Origin: Patescibacteria group bacterium
Lineage (GTDB): Bacteria > Patescibacteriota > Patescibacteriia > Buchananbacterales > UBA6539
Assembly (NCBI GenBank): GCA_041662625.1
Contig: JBAZSB010000001.1
Coordinates: 535,189-599,188 of the forward strand
DNA length: 64,000 nt
Direction of reading: 5' to 3'
The notes below the pieces were generated by a model. That model saw only the letters and a program-made list of their open reading frames with translations. It had not been told where the DNA came from and ran no database searches. Positions 11,177 to 47,589 of the stretch are shown here, piece after piece (the first letter of the stretch is position 1; each line of letters opens with the position of its first letter). The translations under genes were made by a program, and so were the position numbers.

Positions 11177-11680
11177 CTAAATATTTTTAAATACTATTTG
11201 ATTACCACAAAAATCCAGGAATTTTTTTAGGTCTTCGGTTTTAATAACTAAAGTAGCCGTATTGTCATTGGGATGAAAACCGATTTCTTCAGATCCAAAA
11301 AAATCCTGATCAACAATGACCGTGATGTTTTTTTCTTCATTATTAATCAAGCCAAAAACTGAAACTGATCCAGGGGTTAAACCTAAATACTTTTTTAAAT
11401 CTTCAGGTGAGGCAAAGCTTAATTTATCTTCGCCTAATTCTTTTGTCAACTGATTGAGATTAACTCTTTTGTCTGCCAAGACCGTAACGAGATAATAGGC
11501 AGTTTTTTTCTTGTTTCTCAAAAATAAATTTTTAGAGTGAGCACCGGGAATATCCAAATGTAAACTTTCTGATTCTTCAACCGTAAAAACTGCTGGGTGG
11601 TTGTATTTATGATACTTAATATTCAGCTGATCTAAAATTAGATAGATATCTTTCATAAAGATGTTTTGGCAGGCACGCAT
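11177..11680 (-). CDS. YbaK/ProX-family aminoacyl-tRNA deacylase
   Basis: DIPGAHSKNLFL...LGLTPGSVSVFGL matches the YbaK/ProX editing-domain family. The true start is probably an internal Met (MKDIYLIL). Confidence 0.7.
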   Translation of the reverse strand: MRACQNIFMKDIYLILDQLNIKYHKYNHPAVFTVEESESLHLDIPGAHSKNLFLRNKKKTAYYLVTVLADKRVNLNQLTKELGEDKLSFASPEDLKKYLGLTPGSVSVFGLINNEEKNITVIVDQDFFGSEEIGFHPNDNTATLVIKTEDLKKFLDFCGNQIVFKNI

Positions 11681-11708
11681 CTAGAAAATTTGGTCGGGCC
11701 GGCGGGAC

Positions 11709-11819
11709 CCCGCACCAAACTTGCGAATTAGTTTATTTTAATCAGTGACTTATTGGCGCAGACACCGCCTTCGGCTGGACAATTTAAAATTAAAAAAAAA
11801 TATCAGTTTGGTGCGGGGC
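11709..11819. repeat. MITE-like long hairpin element E2 (14-bp clamp CCCCGCACCAAACT / AGTTTGGTGCGGGG)
   Basis: Perfect 14-bp inverted termini. An internal GCCUUCGGC hairpin. Shares loop words with E1. Confidence 0.45.
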
Positions 11820-11848
11820 AAGCTTGAACCCTATTTATAGTGTGTTGA

Positions 11849-11924
11849 GTCGGGCTGGGGAGACTCGAACTCCCGGCCTCATGCACCCCATGCATGCGCG
11901 CTACCAACTACGCCACAGCCCGAC
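11849..11924 (-). tRNA. tRNA-Pro (anticodon GGG)
   Basis: Minus-strand read GTCGGGC TG..GTAGTTGGTAGCGC..CATGC ATGGGGT GCATG AGGCC GGGAG TTCGAGT CTCCC CAGCCCGAC. It has a 7-bp acceptor, a T-arm with GTTCGAG, and a 7-nt anticodon loop with U33 and G37. CCA is not encoded. Flanking sequence extends the acceptor pairing. Confidence 0.85.
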
Positions 11925-11953
11925 TCAACACACTAGCTTATTATGCACCTTTA

Positions 11954-12062
11954 CCCCGCCTCAAGCCTCAAGTAAAAATTTATCTTTGACAGAAGTGAGC
12001 CGAAGGCGATTCCGAGGGCGAAGGTTCAATTTTTAAAAATATTCATTCGGGCTTGAGGCGGG
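11954..12062. repeat. Long hairpin element E3 (14-bp clamp CCCCGCCTCAAGCC / GGCTTGAGGCGGGG)
   Basis: Perfect 14-bp inverted termini. An internal GCCGAAGGC hairpin, the reverse complement of the E2 internal motif. Confidence 0.4.
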
Positions 12063-12121
12063 GCCATGCATGCGCTCAAGCCAACTTCGCTACGGCCCGA
12101 TGTTATTCATCATATACACAA

Positions 12122-12155
12122 AAAAACAAACCTGCAAGCTAGGGTTTGTTTTCCA
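12122..12155. terminator. Bidirectional intrinsic terminator-like hairpin (AAACAAACC-loop-GGTTTGTTT)
   Basis: 9-bp stem, T-rich on the plus side and a 7-T run on the minus side. Confidence 0.45.
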
Positions 12156-12417
12156 ACTTCAGAACTTCACTTCTAATTGGCCAAAGATTTTGGCTGAATG
12201 AAAGCCGGCCGTGTCAGACAATCAAACTTTTAAAGCATGGTTAGACACCTTAACGTGAGATTGTCTGCATTTGACCTTGGGGCTCGCAGGCTCCCGACCG
12301 TAGTCAGTACCGATTTAGAATCCCTACTCTCAAAGGTTGTCCCAAAACTTATGCCAACTGAGGGAAGTGAAGTTCACCTTTATTTTAGCACCCCCAAAAA
12401 GCGCTGTCAAAATTTTG

Positions 12418-12456
12418 TAAAAAAAGAGGGCCGAACAAGTCAGAAACTTGTGGCCC
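12418..12456 (-). terminator. Intrinsic terminator after DAHP synthase (GGGCCACAAG..CUUGUUCGGCCC + U-run)
   Basis: GC-rich hairpin followed by UCUUUUUUU on the minus strand, 30 nt past the stop. Confidence 0.55.
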
Positions 12457-12484
12457 CAAAAGAAACCCTCCCGCTTTGCAGAAC

Positions 12485-13519
12485 TTAGATGGTCCGGCCA
12501 ATAGCGATAGCCACGGCACGGACCTTGATCATTAGTTCAGCAAACTGCTGCGGATATAGCGACTGAGCGCCATCGCAAAGAGCTGAATCTGGATCAGGAT
12601 GAACTTCAATTAGTAATCCATCTGCGCCGACTGCTACTGCTCCCAAAGCGATGTCGGGTACAAGCTCGCGCTTGCCAGAAGGATGTGATGGGTCAAAGAT
12701 AACGGGGTGATGAGTCAACTTTTTGACGACCGGAATCGCGTCGAGATCGGCGTTGAAACGGGTGTAACCGTTATCAATGCCCCGGACACCACGAGCACAT
12801 AGGATTACTCGCGGGTTGCCAGAAGCAACGATGTACTCAGCGGCTAGTAGCCACTCATTAATGGTTGCAGCCATTCCCCGCTTCAGGATCACTGGCTTAT
12901 TGGTTCGACCAACAGCTTCCAACAAGGGGTAGTTTCCCATGTTGGCTGTACCAATCTGCAAGACATCAGCATATTGGGCGACCAACTCCACTAGCTCCGG
13001 CGAAATCACCTCCGTAACCGTGGCTAACCCCACTTGCCGTTTAGCCTGCTGTAATAGCCGCAGGCCTTCTTCGCCTAGACCTTGAAAGGCGAAAATTGAC
13101 TTACGTGGTTTGTAAGCACCTCCACGCAGCAGTCGAGCGCCGGCGGCCTTAACCGCTTCAGCACAACTAATCAGCTGCTGTTCGGATTCAACAGCACACG
13201 GTCCGGCTATCACCACCAGTGGCTCTGCACTGCCGATAGACACTCCGTTGAGGCGAACAGCGAAATCCTCTGGATGGGCCTGGCGAGCAGTCAAACGAAA
13301 CTGGGTAGTGGCAATCACCACATCAATGACGAAAGGCAGGCCACGGAAGAATTCCTGGAGCGCCAACTTGCGCTCATAATCCACCGCTCCGATGCAGTTA
13401 ATAACGATGATCTCTTTACCGCACGAGACCAACGTCTGCTCGAAACCGGCTTGTCTCGCCTCACTTTGGATTTTCCCGATCTGTTCTTTCGAACAGTCAC
13501 CTTTGATCTGAACAAACAT
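12485..13519 (-). CDS. 3-deoxy-7-phosphoheptulonate (DAHP) synthase, type Ibeta with N-terminal ACT/ferredoxin-like regulatory domain
   Basis: VVIAGPCAVESEQQ and LLRGGAYKPRKS are the KDO8PS-like DAHPS core. The start is taken as ATG 13519 (MFVQIKGD), which is preceded by GGAGG. GC-rich cassette. Confidence 0.8.
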   Translation of the reverse strand: MFVQIKGDCSKEQIGKIQSEARQAGFEQTLVSCGKEIIVINCIGAVDYERKLALQEFFRGLPFVIDVVIATTQFRLTARQAHPEDFAVRLNGVSIGSAEPLVVIAGPCAVESEQQLISCAEAVKAAGARLLRGGAYKPRKSIFAFQGLGEEGLRLLQQAKRQVGLATVTEVISPELVELVAQYADVLQIGTANMGNYPLLEAVGRTNKPVILKRGMAATINEWLLAAEYIVASGNPRVILCARGVRGIDNGYTRFNADLDAIPVVKKLTHHPVIFDPSHPSGKRELVPDIALGAVAVGADGLLIEVHPDPDSALCDGAQSLYPQQFAELMIKVRAVAIAIGRTI

Positions 13520-14360
13520 GATTGACCTCCTCTGCTTTAGGGTAAGAACCAACCACTACGACATCACTCACGAACCGTTCTTTGAGCTGCATAACCGCAG
13601 CGGCAAAGACCGGGTCACTCTCATGGCCATCAACATCAATCCAAAAGTAGCATTCTCCTAACGCCCGCTTGGTTGTATAGGAAGTAATGCGACTCAAGTT
13701 GAGGCCCTGATAGTAGAACACACCAAGAGCATGATACAGCGCCCCCGGTTCGTTCCTCGTAGAGAAGAAGAGAGTGGTCTTACTTTTACCATTGGCTGTT
13801 GTCCTGGGTCCTCCCAAGACAATAAAACGTGTCACGTTGTGTTGTGAATCGCCGATGTCAGCAGCCAGCACCTTAAGGCCAAATTGCTCAGCAGCCTGCT
13901 CGGAACTAATCGCCGCAACCATAGCCGATTCAGCCTGCGAGACCAACTCAGCAGCAAGCGCAGTGCTAGCCACTGGTGACTGTTTCCAACCACGGCCTCG
14001 CAAAAACTCCGAGCACTGAGCTAACCCCTGCGGATGCGACAAGACTTCGGTTACTGCCGACAATTCCGTTTGGGGTTTTGCTAAAAGCATCTGGCGAATT
14101 GGAATCAGTACTTCTTGGGTAATCCGCAGACCAGGCGTTGTCCAAACCCTGGCCATGAGAAAGTCGATGGTATCACGAACAACATCGCCCAAGACATTTT
14201 CCAACGGAACAATCGCCCGATCAATGCGGCCTTGAGTAAAGGCTTCGAGCAAATCAGGAATTGAATCAAACCCAACCAGCTCAAATTGGCCACGACCCCA
14301 GACGATTGCCGCTTGAGCGGAAAACGTTCCTAGCGGTCCTAGGTATCCTAACTTCAACAT
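13497..14360 (-). CDS. pheA: Prephenate dehydratase (PDT + ACT domains)
   Basis: LKLGYLGPLGTFS...TRF...TTKRALGECYFWIDVDGH is the PDT catalytic region plus a C-terminal ACT domain. The start is taken at the Met preceded by GGAAAGGAGA. Confidence 0.85.
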   Translation of the reverse strand: MLKLGYLGPLGTFSAQAAIVWGRGQFELVGFDSIPDLLEAFTQGRIDRAIVPLENVLGDVVRDTIDFLMARVWTTPGLRITQEVLIPIRQMLLAKPQTELSAVTEVLSHPQGLAQCSEFLRGRGWKQSPVASTALAAELVSQAESAMVAAISSEQAAEQFGLKVLAADIGDSQHNVTRFIVLGGPRTTANGKSKTTLFFSTRNEPGALYHALGVFYYQGLNLSRITSYTTKRALGECYFWIDVDGHESDPVFAAAVMQLKERFVSDVVVVGSYPKAEEVNHVCSDQR

Positions 14361-14388
14361 ACCCTGATGTCTCCTTTCCTCACTAGGG

Positions 14389-14847
14389 TTAATTGCCAAG
14401 ACCAGCTACCCGACCCAATACAAGCTCCAACAATCCCCGCCAACGACTGGGTTGTGACTCAATCTGGCGATCTGGTCTTCCATCTGGGAAAGTTGCTGCT
14501 GACGACGTCTGGCTTAAGCTAACGTTTGTCGCCTGAGGGCGGCTCTTCATGTCCGCAGCCAATCTCTCATAGATGTCACCGTAGACATCTTTCCACTTTG
14601 CATCAGCCGGTACCAGACCGCGCTCTTCGGCCAAAACCAGGATGGTTGGTTTGCTCAGATCACCCAGACAAATCAAGCCATTGGCCGCATCGTTGCCATC
14701 GCAACTATGGCACTGGTAGTACCGTGAAAGCTGAGCGATCAGATCATCCCGCGACCCGAAATCCAAACCGCAAGATCCGGCTTCAGCCTGCAGTGCCGCC
14801 GAGCTGAGCTGATTAAATCTCACTTGAACGCTCCATATACTCATATC
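14389..14847 (-). CDS. Hypothetical protein (152 aa), first gene of the Phe-attenuated operon
   Basis: GC-rich ORF with a strong SD (AAGGAAGGAGAG) before ATG 14847. No recognisable motif, and it is not an AroQ or AroH chorismate mutase. Confidence 0.5.
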   Translation of the reverse strand, partial: DMSIWSVQVRFNQLSSAALQAEAGSCGLDFGSRDDLIAQLSRYYQCHSCDGNDAANGLICLGDLSKPTILVLAEERGLVPADAKWKDVYGDIYERLAADMKSRPQATNVSLSQTSSAATFPDGRPDRQIESQPSRWRGLLELVLGRVAGLGN

Positions 14848-14976
14848 TTCTCTCCTTCCTTTCACTGAAGATTTCAAGTCCAATTTTCAAAGGGCGATTC
14901 TGGTTGCCCTCTCCAAACCAATCAGGCCTACTGCCTAATTGCTAACCCCTAGCTACCAAGAGTTAAAAATCAGGCA

Positions 14977-15013
14977 ATAAACAAAAAAACTGACCATTCA
15001 GTAGTAGATCAGT
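14977..15013 (-). terminator. Attenuator terminator of the Phe leader (ACUGAUC-loop-GGUCAGU + U7)
   Basis: Minus-strand hairpin followed by UUUUUUUGUUUAUUG. The leader segment ACUGACC at 15075-15081 can pair with the terminator 3' arm as an antiterminator. Confidence 0.55.
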
Positions 15014-15069
15014 TAGCTTTCCGTTTTTATTGATTTTGGCCTATTTTAAGCAAAATACAAGCTACCTGA

Positions 15070-15129
15070 CTACCGGTCAGTATAAAAGAAAAAGCTGAAA
15101 AACCATTTTACGGCTTGTGTCTTTTGCAT
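15070..15129 (-). CDS. Phe-rich leader peptide MQKTQAVKWFFSFFFYTDR (19 aa)
   Basis: The ATG lies ~5-9 nt after the predicted TSS, so the transcript is near-leaderless. There are 5 Phe, 1 Trp and 1 Tyr in a 9-codon run. It sits directly upstream of the terminator and the pheA-DAHPS operon. Confidence 0.6.
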   Translation of the reverse strand: MQKTQAVKWFFSFFFYTDR

Positions 15130-15140
15130 AGGATATTTGT

Positions 15141-15169
15141 AGCTTATCTTACTGTTTGAATATTGTCAA
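15141..15169 (-). promoter_or_regulatory. Sigma70-like promoter for the Phe leader (TTGACA-17-TAAGCT)
   Basis: -35 TTGACA, a 17-nt spacer and -10 TAAGCT on the minus strand. Confidence 0.45.
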
Positions 15170-15343
15170 GAAAACTGTGGGAATATTCCGCTAACAAGCA
15201 TCATGGCTTATTTATCCTAATTTGACTAAATCAATCTTCATCTCGCCCGCCGTAGCAGACTTAATTTTCAATATTCATATATCTTTAAAAACTTTCACTC
15301 ACCCTTCCTTGATGCCGACTATGGGACCTGTCGCGAAGGCGGG

Positions 15344-15967
15344 TCAAGAAAATTTCCGGGAGAGCCGAATATGCCGCCAAATGTATAAAGCAATTGCTAA
15401 AATAACCAAAATTAAAATTGCCAGATCAAAATTATGGAGTTTTTGCCGAATTAACTCCCAATTATCCCCCATTTTCACTCCTAACCAGGCAAAAAGAACG
15501 CACCAGGGGAAAGCCCCGATGAACGTGTAAAAAGAAAACTTTTTTAAATCCATTTTAGCAATCCCAGCGGGAAAAGAAATATAAGTCCGAACAACCGGCA
15601 GGAGCCGGCCAAAAAAAACCGTCAATTGACCATAATGGGAAAACCAATAGTCAGCCAAATCCAAATCGTGTTTGGAAATTAACAGGTACTTGCCATACTT
15701 TTCAATCAGCGGCCGACCGCCTTTAAAACCAATGAGGTAAGCTAAAAGTGACCCAACTAAATTACCAATTGTCCCAACTAAAACTACTGCCCAAAAATTT
15801 AATTTACCCGCCGCAACTAAAAATCCGGAAAACGGCATAATCACTTCGGAAGGCATCGGAATGCCACAACTTTCAACCAGCATTAAAAAAAAGATGCCGG
15901 GGTAGCCGATCAAATTAATTGTGGCCGTAACGATGCTAGCTAAAATGTCGATAATGGTTGTAACCAT
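15344..15967 (-). CDS. DedA/TVP38 family membrane protein
   Basis: VAAGKLNFWAVVLVGTIGNLVGSLLAYLIGFKGGRPLIEKYGK matches the DedA family. AT-rich composition like the host. Confidence 0.75.
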   Translation of the reverse strand: MVTTIIDILASIVTATINLIGYPGIFFLMLVESCGIPMPSEVIMPFSGFLVAAGKLNFWAVVLVGTIGNLVGSLLAYLIGFKGGRPLIEKYGKYLLISKHDLDLADYWFSHYGQLTVFFGRLLPVVRTYISFPAGIAKMDLKKFSFYTFIGAFPWCVLFAWLGVKMGDNWELIRQKLHNFDLAILILVILAIALYIWRHIRLSRKFS

Positions 15968-15968
15968 A

Positions 15969-16742
15969 TTACACTTCTATTTTAGAAAAAAGATAACTGC
16001 CAAGAGCTAATAGCCCTAGGGTAATTAAACTCAAAACAATAAAATCAGTCAGTAAACCCAGATGGGCCCCTTGAATTAAAGCCCCACGTAAACCGTCCAC
16101 GCCATAAACCAAAGGATTAATTTTGGTGGCAGTCACAATTGGTGCAGGAAAACTTTCCAAAGGAAATAAAGCCCCGGAAAGAAAAAAGATTGGCATGATT
16201 AAAAAATTCATAATGATGGGAAAAGCTTGCATATCCTGCAGCATTGTCGCAATGGCTGTACCAAAAGCCGTAAAGACTAAAGCGATTAAAATCATAAAAA
16301 CTAAAGCCAGTGGCAAAAGCAGCCAATCAGTCGGCCGAAAACCCACCACTAAAGTCATCAAAAAAACAATAATGCCCTGAAGGGTGGCAACGGTTGCCCC
16401 ACCCATTGTTCGGCCAATCATAATTTGAAAACGCGAAGCTGGTGCCACCAAAGTTTCTTTTAAAAAGCCAAACTGCCGGTCCCAAATGATTTCAATTCCG
16501 GTAAAAATCGCCGTAAAAATGATGGCCATGGCAATTACACCAGGACCAAGAAATTGCAAATAGCTGCCTTCCCCGGCCTTTTGGTAAATCGGCCCAAAAC
16601 CAAAACCCAAAGCCAATAAAAACAAAAGTGGCTGGCCAAGCGAACCAATCATTCTGGCTTTTGATCTTAAATATCTTTTAATTTGTCTCAACCACAAAAT
16701 ATAAATAACTTTCATATTTTTATTTGCTTTTACCGGCCCCAA
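15969..16742 (-). CDS. ABC-2 type transporter permease
   Basis: Six-TM permease adjacent to the ABC ATPase. Their ORFs overlap. Confidence 0.7.
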   Translation of the reverse strand: MGPVKANKNMKVIYILWLRQIKRYLRSKARMIGSLGQPLLFLLALGFGFGPIYQKAGEGSYLQFLGPGVIAMAIIFTAIFTGIEIIWDRQFGFLKETLVAPASRFQIMIGRTMGGATVATLQGIIVFLMTLVVGFRPTDWLLLPLALVFMILIALVFTAFGTAIATMLQDMQAFPIIMNFLIMPIFFLSGALFPLESFPAPIVTATKINPLVYGVDGLRGALIQGAHLGLLTDFIVLSLITLGLLALGSYLFSKIEV

Positions 16743-17515
16743 GCCTTACGATAACTACGTAACTGATCAAGACCGGAAGCACTCTCGTCTCGAATAATCC
16801 GACCCGTTAAAACTAAAAAAGCGTCTTCCAAAGATTCTTTATTAGTTCTTTGTTTTAATTCATTTGGACTGCCTAAAGCAATAATTTTTCCGTGATCGAT
16901 AATTGCCACTTTTTTTGCGGCCCGGTCGGCTTCTTCCATGTAGTGAGTGGTAAAAAATACCGTCATCCCCTCTTTTTGGTTCAAATCTTTAATATAATTC
17001 CAAATATGATTTCGCGTCTGCGGATCCAAACCCAAAGTTGGCTCGTCTAAAAATAAAATTTGCGGATGATGAATCAAGCCCCGGGCAATTTCCAGCCGCC
17101 GCTTCATCCCACCGGAAAATTTCTTGACCAGTTCATCTTTGCGGTCCCAAAGCTCGACAAATTTCAGCATTTCTTCAATCCGCTGCCGGCGAATCTTTTT
17201 AGCCACGCCGTATAAGACCCCGTGAAATTCCATATTCTCCCAAGTGGTTAACTCATCATCTAAACTGGGATCCTGAAAAACAATACCAAAAGAATGGCGC
17301 ACTGCATCCTGGTCAGTTGAAGGATTATGGCCGTTAACCAAAATTTTTCCGCTGGTTGGCAAAAGCAAAGTGGTCAGCATTTTAATTGTTGTGGTTTTGC
17401 CCGCACCGTTAGGTCCCAAAAAAGCAAAAATATCTCCTTTAGCGACACTAAATGAGATATTATCAACTGCCGTAAAATCACCAAATTTTTTAGTTAAACT
17501 ATCTACCTTAATCAT
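16730..17515 (-). CDS. ABC transporter ATP-binding protein
   Basis: Walker A GPNGAGKTTT, signature LSGGMKRRLEIA and Walker B LFLDEPTLGLD. Confidence 0.9.
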   Translation of the reverse strand: MIKVDSLTKKFGDFTAVDNISFSVAKGDIFAFLGPNGAGKTTTIKMLTTLLLPTSGKILVNGHNPSTDQDAVRHSFGIVFQDPSLDDELTTWENMEFHGVLYGVAKKIRRQRIEEMLKFVELWDRKDELVKKFSGGMKRRLEIARGLIHHPQILFLDEPTLGLDPQTRNHIWNYIKDLNQKEGMTVFFTTHYMEEADRAAKKVAIIDHGKIIALGSPNELKQRTNKESLEDAFLVLTGRIIRDESASGLDQLRSYRKAWGR

Positions 17516-17627
17516 AAAAAATTAAATCACTCATACATTATAAACTCTTTTAGCCCCAAAGAAAAGGCCCCAAGTCAACGCGGACCTGGGGCAAAAAAGG
17601 ACAAACTAGCGTAAGCTAGAAATTTTC

Positions 17628-17781
17628 TGGTCGGGGTGGCAGGATTTGAACCTGCGTCATCGCTTATGCGACTGCTCTTCCTCCTTACGGAGCCTTATCC
17701 TCTATTCCCCAAGCTTATTTGATGATCGGGACCATCTTAGCCAGAGTGGGTACTAATTGGCATCGGCTGAGCTACACCCCG
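17628..17781 (-). ncRNA. tRNA-like RNA element (154 nt): canonical acceptor stem, T-arm and encoded CCA, but no D or anticodon arms
   Basis: The 5' end CGGGGUGUAGCUCAGCC pairs perfectly with the 3' end GCAGGUUCAAAUCCUGC CACCCCG A CCA. The middle is ~95 nt of structured insert (CUCC-GUAA-GGAG and GUCGC-AUAA-GCGAU tetraloop hairpins). Terminator hairpins plus U-runs follow on the minus strand. Confidence 0.45.
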
Positions 17782-17984
17782 TAAATAACATTTAACCAAC
17801 AACAGTTAACAATTAACTGATAAAATAAAAGAGCCCAGGAAGTTGGGCTGTTAAATGTTAACTGTCAATTGTTTTTAGCTAATGATAAACCCAACTTCCC
17901 TAAGGCAAGGTTGGGGGGACGGGCTGAGTTGAACTGAAACGTTTAATCATAGAATTATCTTACTACTACTTAAAAATTTTGTCA

Positions 17985-18020
17985 AAGAAAAAGGACCGGG
18001 TCGCACAAACACGGTCCTAC
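17985..18020 (-). terminator. Intrinsic terminator after the 167-aa gene (AGGACCG..CGGTCCT + U-run)
   Basis: 7-bp GC stem followed by UUUUUCUUUG on the minus strand. Confidence 0.5.
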
Positions 18021-18057
18021 AAGACAATCGACTGGGTGATTAAGATGTTACGACATC

Positions 18058-18561
18058 CTAGATGGTAACATTAAGCAGGTTTGTCTTACTTCTCCCACTC
18101 ATATCGATTACGCCGGTGGGTGGAATTACTCCTTTCACCAGCGATAGCTGGGAATCCCCGTGGCGGGGAGATACCACAACCGACAACAGAATGGGTTGTC
18201 CACCTACAATGAACGATACTTCGGGAATTACGAAGCATTGATCTGCGGTGACCAAATCTCTGAGTTGCCGGCTGCCGGCTTCACTGGCTGCTTGCGCCTG
18301 CTGGGCGGAAATCACCCTAAAGTAAATCAATGCTGCGCCAACCCGCGGGTTGACCCAAACGCAATGCTCGCCAGCATTGCCGTTGCAGTCGGCCAAGGCT
18401 CGGCAAATCCAGGCCATAGCAGCATCCACATCGGTCCGGTTAATGATTTCCGGACTGCAGGCAGTACTGATCTTAGCCTGATCATAACCTTGACCTGTCA
18501 GATGCCGGTCAAAAAACCAAACATCTCGTCCGTTTCCTTCGACTTTCAGTTGTACTGGCAT
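18058..18561 (-). CDS. Hypothetical protein (167 aa), under the Leu-rich leader
   Basis: GC-rich ORF with a very strong SD (GGAAGGAGG) 7 nt before ATG 18561. No recognisable motif. Confidence 0.55.
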   Translation of the reverse strand: MPVQLKVEGNGRDVWFFDRHLTGQGYDQAKISTACSPEIINRTDVDAAMAWICRALADCNGNAGEHCVWVNPRVGAALIYFRVISAQQAQAASEAGSRQLRDLVTADQCFVIPEVSFIVGGQPILLSVVVSPRHGDSQLSLVKGVIPPTGVIDMSGRSKTNLLNVTI

Positions 18562-18576
18562 TTCCAGGCCTCCTTC

Positions 18577-18753
18577 CTATTTCACCCGACCTAATTCCTT
18601 GCAGACCGGACACACTTTTGCCCCCTTGGGCATCCAGTGGTAATACTGGCAGGCTTCTGGGGCGTTAACCAACTCAATGTACAGCCAACGTCCGCCTACA
18701 ATGTAAGTGGCAACTATTGCCCCTACAATCCAGTGCCAAAGTGGTGGAAACAT
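18577..18753 (-). CDS. Small membrane protein (58 aa) MFPPLWHWIVGAIVATYIVGG...CPVCKEL, below ORF-track threshold
   Basis: One TM helix plus a C-terminal CxxC. An RBS-like GAAAGGGA precedes it. It lies between the Leu attenuator and the 167-aa gene. Confidence 0.4.
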   Translation of the reverse strand: MFPPLWHWIVGAIVATYIVGGRWLYIELVNAPEACQYYHWMPKGAKVCPVCKELGRVK

Positions 18754-18880
18754 ATTGCTATCCCTTTCTTGGTTGTCAATACTATTCTTCAGCTATAATG
18801 AGCAAACCTCCGCTCACCCCCACACCTATTTCACTAAAAAATTTTAGTAAACAGATAATGGCTTTAAAATAGGTGTAGGG

Positions 18881-18975
18881 GTAAACAAAACAACCTTCCG
18901 GGTGGAAGGCTGACTGGTATTTATCTAGCTACGATTTTTAGCTAAACACTAGTAAATCTTCCACCCAAAGGCTGG
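18881..18975 (-). terminator. Attenuator terminator of the Leu leader (conserved GGGUGGAAG / CUUCCACCC arms + UUGUUUUGUUU)
   Basis: Arms are ccttccgggtggaagg at 18893-18908 and cttccacccaaaggctgg at 18958-18975. Both arms are near-identical to those of the Ile attenuator at 22046-22141. Confidence 0.6.
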
Positions 18976-19028
18976 CTTAACAACAAGGCTAACAACAGTA
19001 AGCTAGATTGTTTGGCGAAAGATTTCAT
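18942..19028 (-). CDS. Leu-rich leader peptide MKSFAKQSSLLLLALLLSQPLGGRFTSV (28 aa)
   Basis: 7 Leu in a 9-codon run. The ORF starts ~5 nt after the predicted TSS. The stop codon lies inside the terminator loop. Confidence 0.6.
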   Translation of the reverse strand: MKSFAKQSSLLLLALLLSQPLGGRFTSV

Positions 19029-19039
19029 AGGATATTATT

Positions 19040-19068
19040 AGGTTAGCGCAAGTCCAAAAAAATGTCAA
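19040..19068 (-). promoter_or_regulatory. Sigma70-like promoter for the Leu leader (TTGACA-17-TAACCT)
   Basis: The -35 overlaps the U-tract of the upstream terminator. Confidence 0.45.
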
Positions 19069-19084
19069 GAAATAAAAAAAGGCC

Positions 19085-19125
19085 CGTAGTGACAGAGCCA
19101 AGCCATGTCACTACGGGACGAAGAA
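19085..19125 (-). terminator. Strong intrinsic terminator (12-bp stem CCCGTAGTGACA / TGTCACTACGGG + U7) after the 109-aa gene
   Basis: Perfect 12-bp inverted repeat followed by CUUUUUUUAUUUCUUG on the minus strand. Confidence 0.6.
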
Positions 19126-19163
19126 AACGATGGGTCGATAAAACCCTGAAGCAGTGCTTAGAT

Positions 19164-19493
19164 CTAGACCTGTGCGCCAAGCTCCCGCAGTTGAGCCAAA
19201 AGCTCCGGAGCGACAGCAACGCCATGCCGCTGACTCAGGAATTCAACAGTTGACGGAACGCAGACATAGCATAATTGAGCCTTTCTGTCTCTCCAGTGCC
19301 CTGGCTTACCGTTGCTGGGTTCAGGTCCTGGCAAATTCAGCTTAGTGTTGAGCACCTTAAGCTCCTGAAGATTCCCCCTTAGTCTCCGAAGGAGATCAGA
19401 AGGATCATCCAGCCTTTCACACTTGGTCCGCCGCGGGACCCTATCTACACCAACACCATCAACATCCTGTTCAATTCCAGCACAGTCTACCAT
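19164..19493 (-). CDS. Hypothetical protein (109 aa)
   Basis: GC-rich ORF with SD AAGGAG 9 nt before the ATG. No recognisable motif. Confidence 0.5.
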   Translation of the reverse strand: MVDCAGIEQDVDGVGVDRVPRRTKCERLDDPSDLLRRLRGNLQELKVLNTKLNLPGPEPSNGKPGHWRDRKAQLCYVCVPSTVEFLSQRHGVAVAPELLAQLRELGAQV

Positions 19494-19527
19494 GGTTCCT
19501 TCTCCTTCATGTTATCGATTCATTCAA

Positions 19528-19812
19528 TCAACACAAGCCACAAGTAGCATATACCGCTTCTTTGGTGATCATCCCAGAACCAGTTGCGTTGCCGCGAAAG
19601 ACTTTCACCCTACCATTAGTCCGGACGGCAAAACAATGATAAGCGCAGGCAACACCGGAGTAATGAAACTCCACTATTCGCGGATCACACTGACCACCGA
19701 TCACTAGTTGACCAGCCTCGTTGACAGAAATTCTGACCCTTCTGTCGTAGGTGACACTTTGACCGGGTTTGAGATCAAAAGTCGCATCCGGCATCAAATC
19801 ATCATCTTCCAT
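19528..19812 (-). CDS. Hypothetical Cys-containing protein (94 aa), under the Val-rich leader
   Basis: SD AGAGGAG before the ATG. C-terminal Cys pairs (ACAYHC...ATCGLC). No family recognised. Confidence 0.5.
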   Translation of the reverse strand: MEDDDLMPDATFDLKPGQSVTYDRRVRISVNEAGQLVIGGQCDPRIVEFHYSGVACAYHCFAVRTNGRVKVFRGNATGSGMITKEAVYATCGLC

Positions 19813-19929
19813 AGCCCTAACTCCTCTAAGTCTTATCGACTTGTTTGCAAAGAACAGATACGAATCTGCCCTCCTCTCCCTAAACTCGGTTTATTTCCTA
19901 CCCTCTGATCAGCAACATAAACAAAGGGT

Positions 19930-19962
19930 AATAAACAAAAAACTAGTCCTTTGACAGACTAG
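19930..19962 (-). terminator. Attenuator terminator of the Val leader (CUAGUC-loop-GACUAG + UUUUUUGUUUAUU)
   Basis: The 3' tail UUUUUUGUUUAUU(A/G)CC is shared with the Phe attenuator terminator. The leader codons GUA CUA GUC can compete for GACUAG. Confidence 0.5.
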
Positions 19963-19993
19963 GTGGTTCCAGTTCTAATTTTGGAAATCCAAA

Positions 19994-20059
19994 CTACCCA
20001 GTCTGCGAGACTAGTACGACGACGGTCAAAACGACAGTTGTCCGGGCAATAGATTTCAT
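19994..20059 (-). CDS. Val-rich leader peptide MKSIARTTVVLTVVVLVSQTG (21 aa)
   Basis: 6 Val in a 9-codon run. The MKS.A+ N-terminus and SQ.G C-terminus parallel the Leu and Ile leaders. Near-leaderless. Confidence 0.55.
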   Translation of the reverse strand: MKSIARTTVVLTVVVLVSQTG

Positions 20060-20065
20060 ACGATT

Positions 20066-20095
20066 AGTTTAGCAAATCAAAAATAATCTTGTCAA
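20066..20095 (-). promoter_or_regulatory. Sigma70-like promoter for the Val leader (TTGACA-18-TAAACT)
   Basis: Spacing and hexamers parallel the other three attenuator promoters. Confidence 0.4.
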
Positions 20096-20109
20096 ATTTT
20101 AAAAAAAGA

Positions 20110-20150
20110 CCGACCACCCCGTGACAGAGTAATCGGTCGCATAATACCTG
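20110..20150 (-). terminator. Intrinsic terminator after the LeuA/CimA-like gene (GACCGA..UCGGUC + U7)
   Basis: Hairpin followed by UUUUUUU on the minus strand. Confidence 0.5.
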
Positions 20151-20178
20151 GAGTTTTGCGCTTAGGCGATAGCTTTGA

Positions 20179-21945
20179 CTAACGGCGATGACAGTGCAGA
20201 AAGTACTGATAGCCGGCCGCTAATGCTCGGGCCGAAGCTTCGGTTACTGACTCGGAGACAGCAACTGTTCCCCAAATTTCATCACCATTATTCTTGATGC
20301 GCCAGAACAGTATTACCCGAACCCGGGCAGCTGTTCCGTCATGGTTAATCAACGCTTTCACGTTGTAGTTAACCAATTCAAGGCCTACCAGCTCGGGGAA
20401 AACCGGTTCACGCGACCGGCCACCGCGTTCCTGCAGTGCCTGACGCAGAGCTTTGTCCAAGGCGTTGACCAAGCCATCACCTTTGGCCGTCTTCAGACCG
20501 ATAGTCCGGCCATCAGCCAACTCGACTTGAACCGTTGCCTTGGGACTGCCCAGCATCAAATTCTGAAGCTGCCGATCAAGAGTTTCACCGGGCAAGCCGG
20601 TGTAGGGCGGAATCCTCTCAGTCAACTCGCACATCGTCACAGTGAAAAACGGCTGCAATCGGTCTAGCTGGCGCAAGGCCAAAAGTCGAAAACTACCCTC
20701 AGCCGTTTCAAACAGCCAACCATCCCTTTCCAAGCCGTGAACCTTATCAAGCAGCTCGCCAATTCGCGGATCGCTTGGTGCCAAGTTTCTGATAAACTCA
20801 GCTAATCGAACGCGCATCAAGGTTCGGCCGGCTTGATTGGATAGGCCAAGGCTGGTCTGGTTGCCAACCATTGCCGCCCGGATGTGCTCAACTGAATCAG
20901 GATCTTTCAGCCAAGCGTGACTGTGGGTTCCACCTTCGTGATGGAAGGCATTGGGTCCGGCCACCGGCAGGTTGAACGGAATTTCAATTCCCGCCAGATT
21001 GTAGACGTAGCGGGTCAGAGCCGTCCAAAGGGTAAGTTGCTTGGCGGTTACTACGGCAATGCCCATCTTAAGGACCAGACTGGGGATGATCGTGGTCAGG
21101 TTAGCATTGCCAGTCCGCTCACCGATACCACCAATCGTTCCTTGGACATGATCGCAACCGAGTTCAACTGCCAAAAGCGAATTGGCATCGCCCATGCCGG
21201 AATCATTATGGGTATGAACACCCCATTCGACTCCCTGATCCTTTAACCAAGGCACGACGTCGAGCAGAAAAGCAAGCCATTCTGCCGGCAAGGTCCCGCC
21301 GCGGGTGTCACATAGAACTATCCGGCGAGCCCCACCATTGATTGCAGCTGACAAAGTCTTGAAGAAGTATCTTCGGTCGTCTCGCCAGCCGTCAACCGCA
21401 TGCTCGGCATCATAAATGACGGTTTTGCCAACCGATACCAGCGCCGCTACCGTTTCTTCGATTATCCGCAGATTTTCTGCCAGCCGGATTTCCAAAACCC
21501 TTTGGACGTGAAGCTTCCAGCTCTTGCCGAAAACCACCACGTGACTTACGCCAGTATCCAAGACCGACTTGATCATCGGATTGGTGATAAGAATTCGCTC
21601 ACCAGGTTTGTTCGGCTTGACCGTTCCCATAAAAGCGTAAAAAGTCACGCCAAGCTGATGGTACCGCTTTCTTTGAGCGAGAAGCTGACGAAAGACCTCC
21701 GGGTTGACTTTGTCACTCGGCACTGGCCAGCCAACCTCAATATGGCGCAAGCCGGCTCTAACCGCCTGGCTAATCACACTCATCTTGTCCTCGGCCGTCC
21801 AAGTCAGACTCCGAGTCTGACCACCGTCACGACAAGTAGTGCAGAGCAGATCGACTTTCTTTGGTCGACCAAGCAATTTCAGCAACTTAGGCTCAGTCGC
21901 CAATCTCGCTATTACGTCAGCTAGTGACTTCTGAACTAACTGCAT
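20179..21945 (-). CDS. 2-isopropylmalate synthase / (R)-citramalate synthase family enzyme (HMGL-like TIM barrel + C-terminal LeuA-dimer regulatory domain)
   Basis: Contains RDGGQ, HTHNDSGMGDANSLLAVELGCDHVQGTIGGIGERTGNANL, and a long C-terminal regulatory region. The start is taken at the Met preceded by AAGGAGG (MQLVQKSL). The Ile-rich leader suggests citramalate synthase (isoleucine pathway), but this is inference. Confidence 0.8.
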   Translation of the reverse strand: MQLVQKSLADVIARLATEPKLLKLLGRPKKVDLLCTTCRDGGQTRSLTWTAEDKMSVISQAVRAGLRHIEVGWPVPSDKVNPEVFRQLLAQRKRYHQLGVTFYAFMGTVKPNKPGERILITNPMIKSVLDTGVSHVVVFGKSWKLHVQRVLEIRLAENLRIIEETVAALVSVGKTVIYDAEHAVDGWRDDRRYFFKTLSAAINGGARRIVLCDTRGGTLPAEWLAFLLDVVPWLKDQGVEWGVHTHNDSGMGDANSLLAVELGCDHVQGTIGGIGERTGNANLTTIIPSLVLKMGIAVVTAKQLTLWTALTRYVYNLAGIEIPFNLPVAGPNAFHHEGGTHSHAWLKDPDSVEHIRAAMVGNQTSLGLSNQAGRTLMRVRLAEFIRNLAPSDPRIGELLDKVHGLERDGWLFETAEGSFRLLALRQLDRLQPFFTVTMCELTERIPPYTGLPGETLDRQLQNLMLGSPKATVQVELADGRTIGLKTAKGDGLVNALDKALRQALQERGGRSREPVFPELVGLELVNYNVKALINHDGTAARVRVILFWRIKNNGDEIWGTVAVSESVTEASARALAAGYQYFLHCHRR

Positions 21946-22045
21946 ATCAGTATCCTCCTTCCGTTTGTCACGAATTATAACTCCAGTTGATGTCAAGGTT
22001 CCAACTCCCTCCATGACTTACAAAGACAATCTAAGTAAGACAATC

Positions 22046-22141
22046 AAAAAAACCTTCCGGGTGGAAAGTCTCTCTGATCGTTTTACTTATTTCTGATTTC
22101 TTATTTCTGATTTCTCATCTTAAGACTTCCACCCAAAGGCT
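22046..22141 (-). terminator. Attenuator terminator of the Ile leader (GGGUGGAAGUCUCU...AGAGACUUUCCACCC + U7)
   Basis: Long hairpin with a perfect U7. The 5' arm and preceding 22 nt (UUAGCCAGCCUUUGGGUGGAAG) are identical to the Leu attenuator. Confidence 0.65.
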
Positions 22142-22190
22142 GGCTAATGATGATAATACCGATAATAATGTTTTGCCGCGTAGAAGTCAT
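22101..22190 (-). CDS. Ile-rich leader peptide MTSTRQNIIIGIIIISQPLGGSLKMRNQK (29 aa)
   Basis: 7 Ile in an 8-codon run. The ORF starts ~9 nt after the predicted TSS. The SQPLGG segment is encoded by the conserved scaffold. Confidence 0.6.
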   Translation of the reverse strand: MTSTRQNIIIGIIIISQPLGGSLKMRNQK

Positions 22191-22205
22191 AATTTTTATA
22201 TCGTT

Positions 22206-22234
22206 ATCTTAAGCTAAACCAAAAGAATAGTCAA
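22206..22234 (-). promoter_or_regulatory. Sigma70-like promoter for the Ile leader (TTGACT-17-TAAGAT)
   Basis: Hexamers and 17-nt spacing read directly from the sequence. Confidence 0.45.
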
Positions 22235-22262
22235 GTTTTTAAAATAATCTAGCTAATTTCAG

Positions 22263-22487
22263 CTATTTTGGTAAGTTGCCATCATTATTTAAATTTATTG
22301 GCTGATTTAATGACCGACTGGGTATTACCGCGGCTGAAGCTTGAAAAGCGTAGGCCACCCAGCCCAAAATGAACAAGACTAAAATTATGGACAATATCGA
22401 CAAACCTAAAAATTGACCTGCCTCCCGCAAACTTTGCAGCCTGGATTTTCTGGGATAACGATAGTTTTTACTTAAGTATGGCGACAT
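22263..22487 (-). CDS. Hypothetical small membrane protein (74 aa)
   Basis: Single TM segment. No motif. Confidence 0.3.
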   Translation of the reverse strand: MSPYLSKNYRYPRKSRLQSLREAGQFLGLSILSIILVLFILGWVAYAFQASAAVIPSRSLNQPINLNNDGNLPK

Positions 22488-22510: not shown

Positions 22511-22687
22511 TCACTGCATATGATCATTGATGAACTTAATTAGGTCTTTTTCAAAAACCCGGTAAGTTTTATGGCCTATTTTAGCGGCCCTTAATTTGCG
22601 GGCAGCAACCCAGCGGTAAACCGTTTTTTGGCTTACCTTCATGATCTTAGCGACTTCTTCGAGGGTGAGAATTCCGTAGTTAGACAC
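22511..22687 (-). CDS. Excisionase/AlpA-family helix-turn-helix DNA-binding protein (58 aa, GTG start, not in ORF track)
   Basis: Translation VSNYGILTLEEVAKIMKVSQKTVYRWVAARKLRAAKIGHKTYRVFEKDLIKFINDHMQ. LTLEEVAKIL.VS..TVYRW...G.L.A.KIG is the excisionase-family HTH pattern. Confidence 0.45.
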   Translation of the reverse strand: MSNYGILTLEEVAKIMKVSQKTVYRWVAARKLRAAKIGHKTYRVFEKDLIKFINDHMQ

Positions 22688-22699
22688 GCAAATTAGGGT

Positions 22700-22790
22700 T
22701 AGCGACTAATAGTCGACTTCACCTCTAATTCTACAATTTAATGTCCTCTATTGTCAATCATAAGTAAAACATTGTCCTTTATTGTCCAAT
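22700..22790. promoter_or_regulatory. Palindrome CGACTAaTAGTCG plus two direct repeats ATTGTCCT(C/T)TATTGTC(C)AAT upstream of the HTH gene
   Basis: Direct repeats at 22743-22759 and 22773-22790. These are candidate regulator or recombinase binding sites. Confidence 0.3.
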
Positions 22791-47316: not shown

Positions 47317-47322
47317 AAACAA

Positions 47323-47525: not shown

Positions 47526-47589
47526 TCAAAGTATTATCATTGTAGATTGTCTAATTTTCAGTGTCAAGTAAATTTTGTGGATAACTTAA

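Follow-up and report, generated by a model that had tools for sequence, protein, structure and literature searches.

Patescibacteria, or candidate phyla radiation (CPR) bacteria, are regarded as minimal, largely auxotrophic symbionts, and little is known about their gene regulation. In leader-peptide attenuation, as practised by enterobacterial operons, the position of the ribosome within a run of codons selects either an antiterminator or a terminator. Mimics of tRNA are known as well, among them the tRNA-like domain of tmRNA, tRNA-Other of B. cereus and the staphylococcal cell-wall tRNA-Gly. The pheL leader has been described (PMC3082878), and in Actinobacteria a leader peptide with a terminator precedes ilvB and the trp genes, with attenuators or leader peptides described for leuS and trpS as well (Seliverstov et al. 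2005, PMC1262725). Classical attenuation is thus known outside the Proteobacteria, and actinobacterial leuA uses a pseudoknot, the 'LEU element' (PMC1262725). Here we analyse 64,000 nucleotides of a Patescibacteria group bacterium (contig JBAZSB010000001.1, positions 535,189 to 599,188), which we call the window and in whose positions all coordinates are given. An earlier note on this DNA had read a set of GC-rich genes in it as cassettes inserted into an AT-rich genome. We find that these genes very probably belong to a conserved chromosomal cluster of five leader-peptide transcription attenuators, and not to a recent island. The evidence lies in the anatomy of the units, the conservation of leaders and structures in nine genomes, a computed switch, the distinct composition and Shine-Dalgarno (SD) use of the controlled genes, and the conserved synteny of the locus.

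The five attenuators, which head tandem and independently transcribed units, are listed below in minus-strand order with the genes behind them. We use "cargo" for what lies behind the leaders (in counts and composition, for the GC-rich genes of the window) and "host" for the other genes of the window.

22042-22234, minus strand: Ile attenuator (promoter 22234-22206, terminator at about 22046-22070)
20179-21945, minus strand: divergent citramalate-synthase-like enzyme of the Ile unit, 588 aa, with HMGL-like and LeuA_dimer regulatory domains (Pfam)
19933-20095, minus strand: Val (ilv-type) attenuator (promoter 20095-20066, terminator 19943-19962)
19528-19812, minus strand: 94-aa orphan, Val cargo (no family matches)
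19164-19493, minus strand: 109-aa orphan, Val cargo (no family matches)
18883-19068, minus strand: Leu attenuator (terminator 18891-18912)
18577-18753, minus strand: 58-aa membrane/Cys-rich protein, Leu cargo (Pfam and PHROG negative)
18058-18561, minus strand: 167-aa orphan, Leu cargo (Pfam and PHROG negative)
17822-17985, minus strand: Pro-type attenuator (promoter 17985-17957, terminator 17832-17849)
17628-17781, minus strand: tRNA-like RNA, cargo of the Pro leader (from its fold; a terminator follows at 17567-17592)
14980-15169, minus strand: Phe/aromatic attenuator (from sequence, constrained folds and conservation)
14389-14844, minus strand: 151-aa orphan, first gene of the Phe operon (Pfam and PHROG negative)
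13497-14360, minus strand: prephenate dehydratase (PDT) with an ACT domain, Phe operon (PF00800, 2e-51)
12485-13519, minus strand: type I-beta DAHP synthase (DAHPS), N-terminal domain FXD-like; third in the Phe operon (PF00793, 2e-73)

All units are laid out alike on the minus strand. The previous unit ends in its terminator; then come a sigma-70-type promoter (TTGACA-N17/18-TAxxxT), a mini-open reading frame (mini-ORF), an antiterminator segment, an intrinsic terminator and the cargo. The leader mini-ORFs are 16-29 codons long, lack an SD motif, begin 6-15 nt past the -10 box and hold 4-7 cognate codons each, with the cores WFFSFFFY (Phe), PVPP (Pro), LLLLALLL (Leu), VVLTVVVLV (Val) and IIIGIIII (Ile). 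In the Phe attenuator the promoter TTGACA-N17-TAAGCT (15169-15141) is followed by the leader ORF at 15070-15129 (ATG at 15129; MQKTQAVKWFFSFFFYTDR) and then by alternative hairpins, with the terminator and its T-run ending at about 14983. The Pro leader ORF lies at 17900-17950 (ATG at 17950; MIKRFSSTQPVPPTLP), with an antiterminator pairing of GGGAAGTTGGG with CCCAACTTCC. The Leu, Val and Ile leader ORFs occupy 18942-19028 (ATG at 19028; MKSFAKQSSLLLLALLLSQPLGGRFTSV), 19994-20059 (ATG at 20059; MKSIARTTVVLTVVVLVSQTG) and 22101-22190 (ATG at 22190; MTSTRQNIIIGIIIISQPLGGSLKMRNQK). A consensus scanner called the promoters of the Val, Pro and Ile units and of an RNA gene at 12.1-12.4 kb (see below), together with the attenuator terminators at 18912-18891 (Leu), 17849-17832 (Pro) and 19962-19943 (Val); those of Phe and Ile were identified from sequence and folds. 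When the whole window was scanned for 5-7 identical residues within a 9-residue window, no comparable intergenic leader appeared in the other 54 kb, and all five lie on the coding strand inside the 10-kb locus.

To compare the locus, we used nine genomes: the window and eight further genomic contexts from JGI, ENA, NCBI and Logan (labelled L0xx), with relatives drawn from the clades of the citramalate-synthase-like (CimA-like) protein (54-82% identity) and of the DAHP synthase (60-81%). Scans of genome and metagenome collections with a CimA-like profile gave three loci each, mostly duplicates, and the comparative set was therefore assembled by exact-protein look-ups; it includes a metagenome-assembled genome of Candidatus Moraniibacteriota (L002) and one of Candidatus Buchananbacteria. 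The Ile leader occurs in 8 genomes, Leu in 7, Val and Phe/aromatic in 6 each and Pro (PVPP) in 3. An Ile attenuator stands upstream of every CimA-type gene examined (L002, L005, L007, L012, L018, L020); the Phe leader is found in L005, L007, L018, L019 and L020 besides the window, the Val leader is kept in L005, L007, L018 and L020, and the Pro leader has counterparts in L007 (MIKRNNQILPVPPSLP) and L018 (MIKRFNSTLPVPPTYLRKLG). Ile leaders from relatives include MTFTKDIIISIIIISQPMGGSLSTM and MKLKNIFIIIISIIITRLELSSEFSF, and a Phe/aromatic example is MQSTQANKWFFNFYFFADR. Among the leaders, Ile codons swap synonymously (ATT/ATC/ATA) and the Ile residues are retained.

Two observations in relatives stand beside these counts. 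At 6114-7260 of L002 a further aromatic leader (…SSSYYFFWFTR…), equipped with a promoter and a terminator, precedes orphan ORFs of 68, 142 and 53 aa; the Ile-leader/CimA-like unit of this genome is about 3 kb away. L020 carries more than 50 copies of perfect tandem CTATCAG heptamers at 8500-8900, between a GC-rich structured segment and a Phe/Tyr leader promoter.

We folded the leaders with the ribosome footprint masked, placing the ribosome either stalled in the codon run or at the stop codon. All five window leaders form an antiterminator when the ribosome is stalled and a terminator when it is at the stop. Of 30 leaders, 22 wholly lost the terminator on stalling, as against 14 of 540 shuffled controls, in which the segment between codon run and terminator was randomised. 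Terminator sequences of the types CCTTCCACCCGGAAGG and GTCCGCCCCGGCGGAC can both pair with an invariant segment, GGGTGGAAG, which also codes for a conserved 'QPLGG' peptide tail ('SQPLGG'). Column-wise covariation of the terminators was dropped, since indels break the register, and per-sequence constrained folding was used instead.

These folds suggest the following mechanism. A shortage of the cognate charged tRNA would make the ribosome stall in the codon run, so that the antiterminator segment could pair with the terminator's 5' arm and RNA polymerase would proceed into the cargo. When charged tRNA is plentiful, a ribosome at the stop codon would cover the antiterminator segment and the terminator would form. 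Regulation by amino-acid supply in vivo is what such a switch would predict.

The amino acid apparently sensed matches the enzyme controlled: Ile with citramalate-synthase-type genes, Leu with LeuA, and Phe with PDT and DAHP synthase. The same leader can stand before different versions of these enzymes. In L018 and L020 the Ile leader also precedes non-orthologous citramalate-synthase-type genes (28-32% identical), in L005 the Phe leader precedes a different, non-orthologous DAHPS (27% identical), and the Leu leader precedes LeuA in L005, L018 and L020. This non-orthologous replacement behind the same leader is strong evidence that the coupling between leader and cargo is functional. A rival idea is that the mini-ORFs matter as peptides in themselves, for instance as type-I toxins or membrane micro-proteins, with the hairpins serving as ordinary terminators. 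The Ile, Leu and Val peptides are indeed hydrophobic and 17-29 aa long, and a weak Rfam match to an antitoxin small-RNA-type hairpin lies near 12123-12177. The Phe and Pro leaders, however, are not transmembrane-like, the amino acid of the codon run fits the pathway of the downstream enzyme in several genomes, the antiterminator pairing exceeds that of the shuffled controls as counted above, and the segment coding for the 'SQPLGG' tail is the one that pairs with the terminator arm. We consider such a peptide function highly improbable.

Several points weigh against attenuation as the account of this locus. The regulation is deduced from sequence throughout. The Leu and Phe promoters score below the scanner threshold, and no window leader reached an Rfam leader family at gathering thresholds; the best match, Phe_leader (RF01859), scored 27.1 bits against a gathering value of 55 and was located on the Leu leader, and in four relatives the Rfam leader families gave nothing at E<=0.01. 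In an automated test a clean switch, with the terminator at most 34% formed on stalling and at least 80% at the stop, was seen in only 17 of the 30 leaders; for some Val, Phe and Pro leaders the outcome was mixed, in part through the script's automatic choice of terminator. The Pro leader, with only 4 Pro codons, could instead be a sensor of the EF-P or arrest type. The enzymes appear at this locus as isolated committed steps, and any physiological role for them, or function of the orphans, is putative. Finally, attenuation does not explain why the cargo differs in GC content, SD use and tetranucleotides, which leaves room for a foreign origin. We keep the attenuator cluster as the preferred reading and take up the origin of its cargo further on.

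The enzymes named in the earlier note were borne out. At 417 bits the DAHP synthase clears the NF006421 cutoff (335), and its CPR relatives are 60-81% identical; the prephenate dehydratase, at 239 bits, exceeds the 219 required by NF008865. For the LeuA/CimA-family synthase, TIGR00977 (citramalate synthase) is by far the best family at 398 bits, although this lies under its cutoff of 450. The 588-aa protein belongs to a CPR-only clade at 54-82% identity, after which identity falls to 38%; its Ile leader, and the canonical CimA that takes its place in L018 and L020, point to a probable citramalate synthase activity. The remaining cargo proteins are orphans. In an exhaustive HMMER search of 1.84 billion proteins the family of the 151-aa protein comprised three clusters with E<1e-10, and it is 42% identical to a 154-aa protein of L007. 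The 58-aa and 167-aa Leu cargo proteins have L007 homologues at 50% and 34% identity; a single-sequence AlphaFold (AF2) model of the latter was unusable (mean predicted confidence, pLDDT, of 42). The 94-aa protein, for which a word-indexed homology search returned only itself, is 60% identical to a 92-aa protein of L007 and 37% to a protein of L020.

What stands behind a given leader differs between genomes. The Ile leader is followed by the 588-aa CimA-like protein, a CimA of 518-539 aa or a 110-aa ORF; the Leu leader by LeuA, the 58- and 167-aa pair or a 119-aa protein; and the Phe leader by PDT and DAHPS, the non-orthologous DAHPS, or ORFs of 154, 239 or 196 aa. The cassette character that had been ascribed to these genes therefore stands, in the sense that the cargo is exchangeable.

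The compositional contrast is real and sharp. In 1-kb windows GC content rises to 0.49-0.53 in the block at 12.0-15.0 kb and to 0.47-0.54 in that at 17.5-22.0 kb, against a background outside both blocks of 0.403 (sd 0.035), with a third, small peak at 26.3-26.7 kb. In 200-bp windows the increase is limited to coding sequences, and the intergenic leaders are AT-rich again (0.38-0.40 GC at 18.7-19.0 kb and 19.8-20.0 kb). Per gene, GC is 0.48-0.53 in cargo and 0.32-0.46 in host, and GC at the third codon position (GC3) is 0.44-0.56 and 0.25-0.45, respectively; the cargo is GC-rich at all three codon positions. Codon choice differs strongly, with fractions in host and cargo of 0.41 and 0.07 for Leu TTA, 0.73 and 0.43 for Lys AAA, and 0.86 and 0.59 for Phe TTT. 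The tetranucleotide signatures of cargo and host, normalised for mononucleotide composition, correlate at 0.66, while size-matched host subsets (200 draws) gave 0.89 +/- 0.04 with a minimum of 0.72.

The cargo is set apart equally by translation signals. An AAGGAGG-type SD match of 4-7 nt precedes all nine cargo genes and 7 of the 41 host ATG-start ORFs, being absent in the other 34. The contrast extends to relatives, where an SD of at least 5 nt was found at 30 of 36 cargo genes and 4 of 64 host genes. Taking the whole window with L002-L020, 49 of 64 called host genes lack any SD motif. That the leader ORFs start 6-15 nt past the -10 box suggests leaderless or SD-independent initiation as the default mode. 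Both the GC contrast, which had been judged by eye, and the difference in SD use thus survived calculation. The proposed block limits held for the genes at 12.5-14.9, 18.0-22.0 and 26.3-26.7 kb, whereas the stretch at 12.1-12.4 kb turned out to be a structured RNA gene and not protein-coding, and that at 17.6-18.0 kb to be a leader plus the tRNA-like RNA. The last of these blocks needs a correction to the earlier note: its small GC-rich ORF is on the plus strand.

26288-26668, plus strand: isolated GC-rich orphan ORF, 126 aa, GC 0.51, SD-bearing (no leader detected)

Steps so sharp, falling at gene boundaries, might also arise if contigs of a GC-rich organism had been joined to an AT-rich CPR genome, the alternative that the earlier note had raised. 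An independent ENA MEGAHIT contig, however, corresponds to window positions 23010-10180 with two mismatches and one gap (99.98% identical over 12.8 kb) and spans all four block junctions (at about 12.1, 14.9, 17.6 and 22.2 kb). The exact CimA-like protein, DAHP synthase and 94-aa ORF also lie on a 922,082-bp NCBI contig ('Patescibacteria group bacterium'), and the interleaved AT-rich/GC-rich architecture recurs in at least 8 other assemblies (JGI, ENA, NCBI, Logan). Moreover, AT-rich leaders and GC-rich cargo form single functional units. Since independent contigs reproduce every junction, we see practically no chance of a chimera.

Between and beside the GC-rich genes lies an AT-rich backbone, whose position in relatives allows the idea of a recent island to be judged:

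22511-22687, minus strand: HTH_17 protein, 58 aa, excisionase-family fold (HTH_17, E 2.3e-15)
22263-22487, minus strand: 74-aa membrane protein (AT-rich)
16730-17515, minus strand: ABC ATPase (Pfam, NCBIfam)
15969-16742, minus strand: ABC-2 permease (Pfam, NCBIfam)
15344-15967, minus strand: DedA/UptA-like gene (Pfam, NCBIfam)

In L019 the backbone equals that of the window, running through ComEC, MBL, a response regulator, NDK, HTH_17, leader-controlled small ORFs and the ABC exporter to the Phe unit with PDT and DAHPS, and then to tRNA-Pro(GGG), rpsL, rpsG, fusA and tuf. The ABC exporter pair lies inside the cluster in L007, L019 and L020 too (66-93% identity), and tRNA-Pro(GGG) holds the same position in L007, L018 and L019. 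Backbone proteins of the window and L019 share 45-89% identity, a range that takes in PDT (78%) and DAHPS (66%); the cargo enzymes diverge in step with the backbone. The GC contrast between cargo and host recurs in L005 (0.50-0.54 and 0.35-0.43), L018 (0.46-0.54 and 0.35-0.43) and L020 (0.54-0.60 and 0.47-0.51).

A recent horizontal acquisition, with one or two islands inserted at tRNA-Pro and at the tRNA-like element and HTH_17 acting as excisionase, would account for cargo that is unlike the host in GC, GC3, codon usage, tetranucleotides and SD use, and for tRNA genes and an excisionase-family helix-turn-helix (HTH) gene at the edges. Yet a direct-repeat search of 10.8-23.2 kb gave paralogous leader segments only and no tRNA-derived attachment (att) repeats at the blocks, and there is no recombinase or integrase among the annotated genes from 10.2 to 28 kb. 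No presence/absence polymorphism was seen: the locus sits at the same backbone position in L019, units occur in all relatives examined, and it is the cargo alone that varies. Contrast and leaders alike recur in genomes with no more than 45-89% identity in backbone proteins. The closest relatives of the CimA-like protein and of DAHPS, at the identities given above, are all Patescibacteria (Moraniibacteriota, Buchananbacteria, 'Patescibacteria group'), and outside this group identity falls to 38% for the former and 50-54% for the latter (Chloroflexi/Anaerolineae and others). We therefore regard a recent island as very unlikely.

Most elements of the insertion scenario fall with it. The tRNA-Pro proposed as the target is conserved, best matches in a foreign phylum are absent among the nearest relatives of the cargo enzymes, and the host-like segment said to separate the two blocks belongs to the cluster. 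Recency itself is at odds with the recurrence of the GC/SD contrast in relatives and with cargo enzymes that diverge within the backbone range. The excisionase-like gene at the edge does have the HTH_17 family fold; its island role does not hold, as it is part of the AT-rich backbone, with host composition and a strong promoter of its own (22757-22728), and lies beside NDK in L019. Likewise the CCA-ended tRNA-like element exists where it had been noted, as cargo of an attenuator and not as an attachment site. Over the HTH_17 promoter (22690-22790) we observed four repeats of the GGACAAT/TGACAAT/GGACATT type, which are probably operator sites for autoregulation.

What, then, made the cargo distinct? 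The signature has stayed stable over a long divergence. Most likely it stems either from an old acquisition that selection on expression has held apart or from repeated exchange of cargo out of a shared pool, and not from a recent insertion. One explanation places a shared pool of GC-rich, SD-using cassettes behind native AT-rich attenuators that serve as 'landing pads', by ancient acquisition or recurrent exchange. Cargo would then have been replaced repeatedly by recombination, possibly with GC-biased gene conversion, and this is compatible with the attenuator mechanism. Such a pool would fit the way cargo varies behind a given leader, a signature in GC and SD that all cargo has in common, the nearest non-CPR DAHPS being from Chloroflexi/Anaerolineae and others at 50-54%, and a mild incongruence in the identity ranks of PDT and DAHPS between L018 and L019. 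It accords less well with other observations: no high-identity donor was found, searches for direct and inverted repeats revealed no recombination sites at the cargo boundaries, nor was a recombinase seen there, and part of the cargo consists of orphans without homologues outside the CPR clade (the 151-aa family being the case in point), so that their signature is not simply a donor legacy. Cargo GC moreover follows host GC, being about 0.52 where the host has 0.40 and 0.54-0.60 in L020, where the host has 0.50, which looks like an equilibrium offset rather than a relic. On balance we hold the cassette pool to be quite possible, though not probable. Selection for a separate, SD-driven expression mode is the second of the two explanations.

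Two further ideas about the composition were tried. Depletion of the cognate amino acid as the cause of GC-richness was rejected, as the shift in amino acids is generic and GC-driven (K/N/Y/I/F down, R/H/Q/V/A up) and PDT, under Phe control, holds more Phe than the host average. The idea that leaders use starvation-sensitive codons and cargo the other isoacceptors found partial support: the Leu leader uses TTA and TTG, and the cargo avoids TTA and retains TTG.

The cargo of the Pro leader is not a protein. The tRNA-like RNA at 17628-17781 has a 7-bp acceptor of the tRNA-Pro type (C1-G72, A73) with encoded CCA, a T-arm (GCAGG/CCTGC, loop TTCAAAT), a D-stem (GCTC/GAGC) around an insert of about 80 nt, and an anticodon arm reduced to a 5-bp stem and a 4-nt loop. 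The neighbouring tRNA-Pro(GGG) genes have the same C1-G72/A73 acceptor, which fits the Pro-codon leader. Homologues stand directly behind the PVPP terminator in L006/L007 and in L018, making three distinct genomes with the window. In these the distance from the Pro terminator to the tRNA-like 5' end is only 3-40 nt, which argues that the RNA has no separate promoter. The L007 copy has a normal D-arm and scores 49.5 bits with the Rfam tRNA model (RF00005, cutoff 29); ARAGORN calls it 'tRNA-???', with the anticodon unassigned. The L018 copy has a D-loop insert of about 54 nt, which starts with AGCCGA like that of the window. In the window and L018 copies, both under the Rfam tRNA threshold, D-stem and T-stem are separated by 18 and 17 nt, as against 22-23 in tRNA, which is less than a standard anticodon arm needs. 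In the T-stem, D-stem and acceptor the three copies differ in a compensatory manner. The window copy also gave a weak end-to-end match to a tmRNA model, which covers the tRNA-like ends only (E 9e-4). The RNA may exert its effect via the acceptor end, either by being aminoacylated or by serving as a decoy for a protein.

In L005 (4170-4436) a tRNA-Ala(UGC) gene (Rfam, 51.9 bits) stands between the Val terminator and the 94-aa gene, so that tRNA-type cargo behind attenuators is not unique to the window genome. A relaxed ARAGORN run allowing introns produced seven extra 'tRNAs', of which the one at 57344-57497, of the same length as the tRNA-like element, proved unrelated by alignment.

Just downstream of the Phe unit lie a structured RNA and a tRNA-Pro cluster with inserted hairpins:

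12120-12380, minus strand: conserved structured RNA, about 260 nt (promoter 12410-12382, 11/12 matches; terminator at about 12124-12152)
11691-12099, minus strand: split ancestral tRNA-Pro(GGG) gene, acceptor CGGGCCG/CGGCCCG-ACCA (segments match tRNA-Pro(GGG) of L018)
11954-12063, unstranded: hairpin insert resembling a miniature inverted-repeat transposable element (MITE), termini CCCCGCC.../...GGCGGGG, in the anticodon loop of the split tRNA-Pro
11849-11922, minus strand: intact tRNA-Pro(GGG) (ARAGORN; Rfam tRNA, 62.9 bits)

The intact tRNA-Pro(GGG), which had been noted beside the first block and is present there, is flanked by a 23-nt inverted repeat (11838-11860 / 11913-11935) and nested in the split gene. 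The latter shares its acceptor, D-arm and 3' end with tRNA-Pro(GGG) of L018 and is broken up by three insertions, one each in anticodon loop, variable region and T-loop. Within the middle one sits the intact tRNA-Pro(GGG), which differs from the split gene and makes the arrangement a 'tRNA inside a tRNA'. The 414-nt region folds at -175.5 kcal/mol (z = -7.3), and the split gene could be either a pseudogene superseded by a replacement copy or a precursor that undergoes splicing or processing. Adjoining the cluster at 11177-11680 (minus strand) is a gene for a YbaK/ProX-like free-standing aminoacyl-tRNA editing protein (PF04073), which could be linked functionally to the tRNA-Pro-like RNA.

An inverted-repeat search showed a sister of the hairpin insert at 11708-11818 and a related hairpin at 18816-18882. 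Members of this family are about 65-110 nt long, with termini CCCC(G/T)(C/A)(C/A)CC... and ...GG(T/G)G(C/T)GGGG, and sit in tRNA loops, a leader region and a promoter, a MITE-like behaviour. The two copies in the split tRNA-Pro have a common internal core, GCCGAAGGCG, in opposite orientations, and the promoter-region hairpin of L005 (about 4040-4130) is a similar CCCCGCACC...GGTGCGGGG element.

The structured RNA is 71-84% conserved in L005 (11972-12230), L007 (10370-10650), L018 (11125-11400) and L020 (11105-11350). It has a strong promoter of its own, always follows the Phe unit and in most cases immediately precedes tRNA-Pro(GGG). Its consensus fold comprises 76 pairs, of which 18 show compensatory double changes. 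Rfam searches to E<=10 yielded only noise for this RNA, and by eye it bears no convincing resemblance to RNase P, SRP, 6S or tmRNA.

Elsewhere in the window, an adenosylcobalamin (AdoCbl, B12) riboswitch at 47379-47534 on the minus strand (52.5 bits, cutoff 50) lies immediately downstream of a gene at 47704-48261 and upstream of an ORF at 45529-47322, whose control its position would allow; it adds a further regulator at the RNA level to this small genome. The gene at 47704-48261 itself follows a 786-aa ORF (48309-50669), which we take from its N-terminus to be ribonucleotide-reductase-like.

If the attenuator cluster is as we read it, CPR organisms would sense the charging of individual tRNAs and answer transcriptionally. 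Some CPR lineages keep committed, feedback-regulated steps of Phe, Ile and Leu synthesis at this locus, which puts the purpose of these enzymes in question. SD-bearing cargo in an SD-poor genome offers a natural system for two initiation modes in one cell, an attenuator gating a non-coding tRNA-like RNA would widen the known targets of attenuators, and sharp compositional islands beside tRNAs need not be recent insertions.

One may go further and picture in this clade a dedicated amino-acid-starvation 'attenuon', in which native, leaderless sensor ORFs gate GC-rich, SD-dependent cargo that falls short of complete pathways. Its products (the feedback-controlled entry enzymes DAHP synthase, prephenate dehydratase and citramalate/isopropylmalate synthases, the lineage-restricted orphans beside an ABC exporter and the anticodon-less tRNA-Pro mimic) would act on the symbiont-host relationship or on translation control, and not in autonomous biosynthesis. 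Pathway-entry intermediates might, for example, bypass the feedback inhibition of the host, and the tRNA mimic might be an attenuator-gated regulatory RNA that reports or buffers the status of tRNA-Pro or prolyl-tRNA synthetase (ProRS). We offer this as speculation, and think it unlikely.

How does the locus compare with described systems? Searches of the searchable literature turned up no mention of attenuation in CPR/Patescibacteria, nor of these enzymes or tRNA-like RNAs of this kind there, and we know of no described precedent for a tRNA-like RNA gated by attenuator read-through. With tRNA-associated genomic islands the locus shares atypical genes beside tRNA genes and a small excisionase-family HTH gene; it differs in lacking an integrase and att duplication, in the conservation of position and content across divergent genomes, and in an HTH gene with the composition of the backbone. 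Integron cassette arrays also consist of short co-oriented units whose cargo differs among relatives, but no intI, attC-type sites or shared boundary repeats were found here, and each unit has its own promoter, attenuator and terminator. Known tRNA mimics resemble the tRNA-like RNA in acceptor stem, T-arm, 3' CCA and degenerate or absent anticodon function. Unlike tmRNA it has neither an mRNA-like domain nor G3:U70, its acceptor being tRNA-Pro-like, and unlike the known mimics it has D-loop inserts of 0, about 54 or about 80 nt and is predicted to be transcribed only by read-through of a Pro-codon attenuator.

The closest likeness is to the enterobacterial attenuators pheL-pheA, leuL-leuABCD, ilvL-ilvGMEDA, ivbL-ilvBN, thrL, hisL and trpL, which likewise have a leader ORF with a codon run, mutually exclusive antiterminator and terminator hairpins, and an intrinsic terminator before biosynthetic genes for the same amino acid. 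From the actinobacterial attenuators the units differ in phylum, show no sequence relation, and place LeuA (L005, L018, L020) behind a Leu-codon leader. In contrast to the enterobacterial cases, the host is a patescibacterium with few SDs, the leader ORFs are nearly leaderless and belong to no Rfam leader family, five attenuators are clustered in 10 kb, and the cargo is compositionally distinct from the genome and consists of single committed-step enzymes, orphans and a non-coding tRNA-like RNA instead of whole pathways. New, therefore, are five attenuators in one conserved locus, nearly leaderless sensors that gate SD-rich, GC-rich cargo, isolated committed-step enzymes and orphans as that cargo, and a non-coding tRNA mimic under the control of an attenuator.

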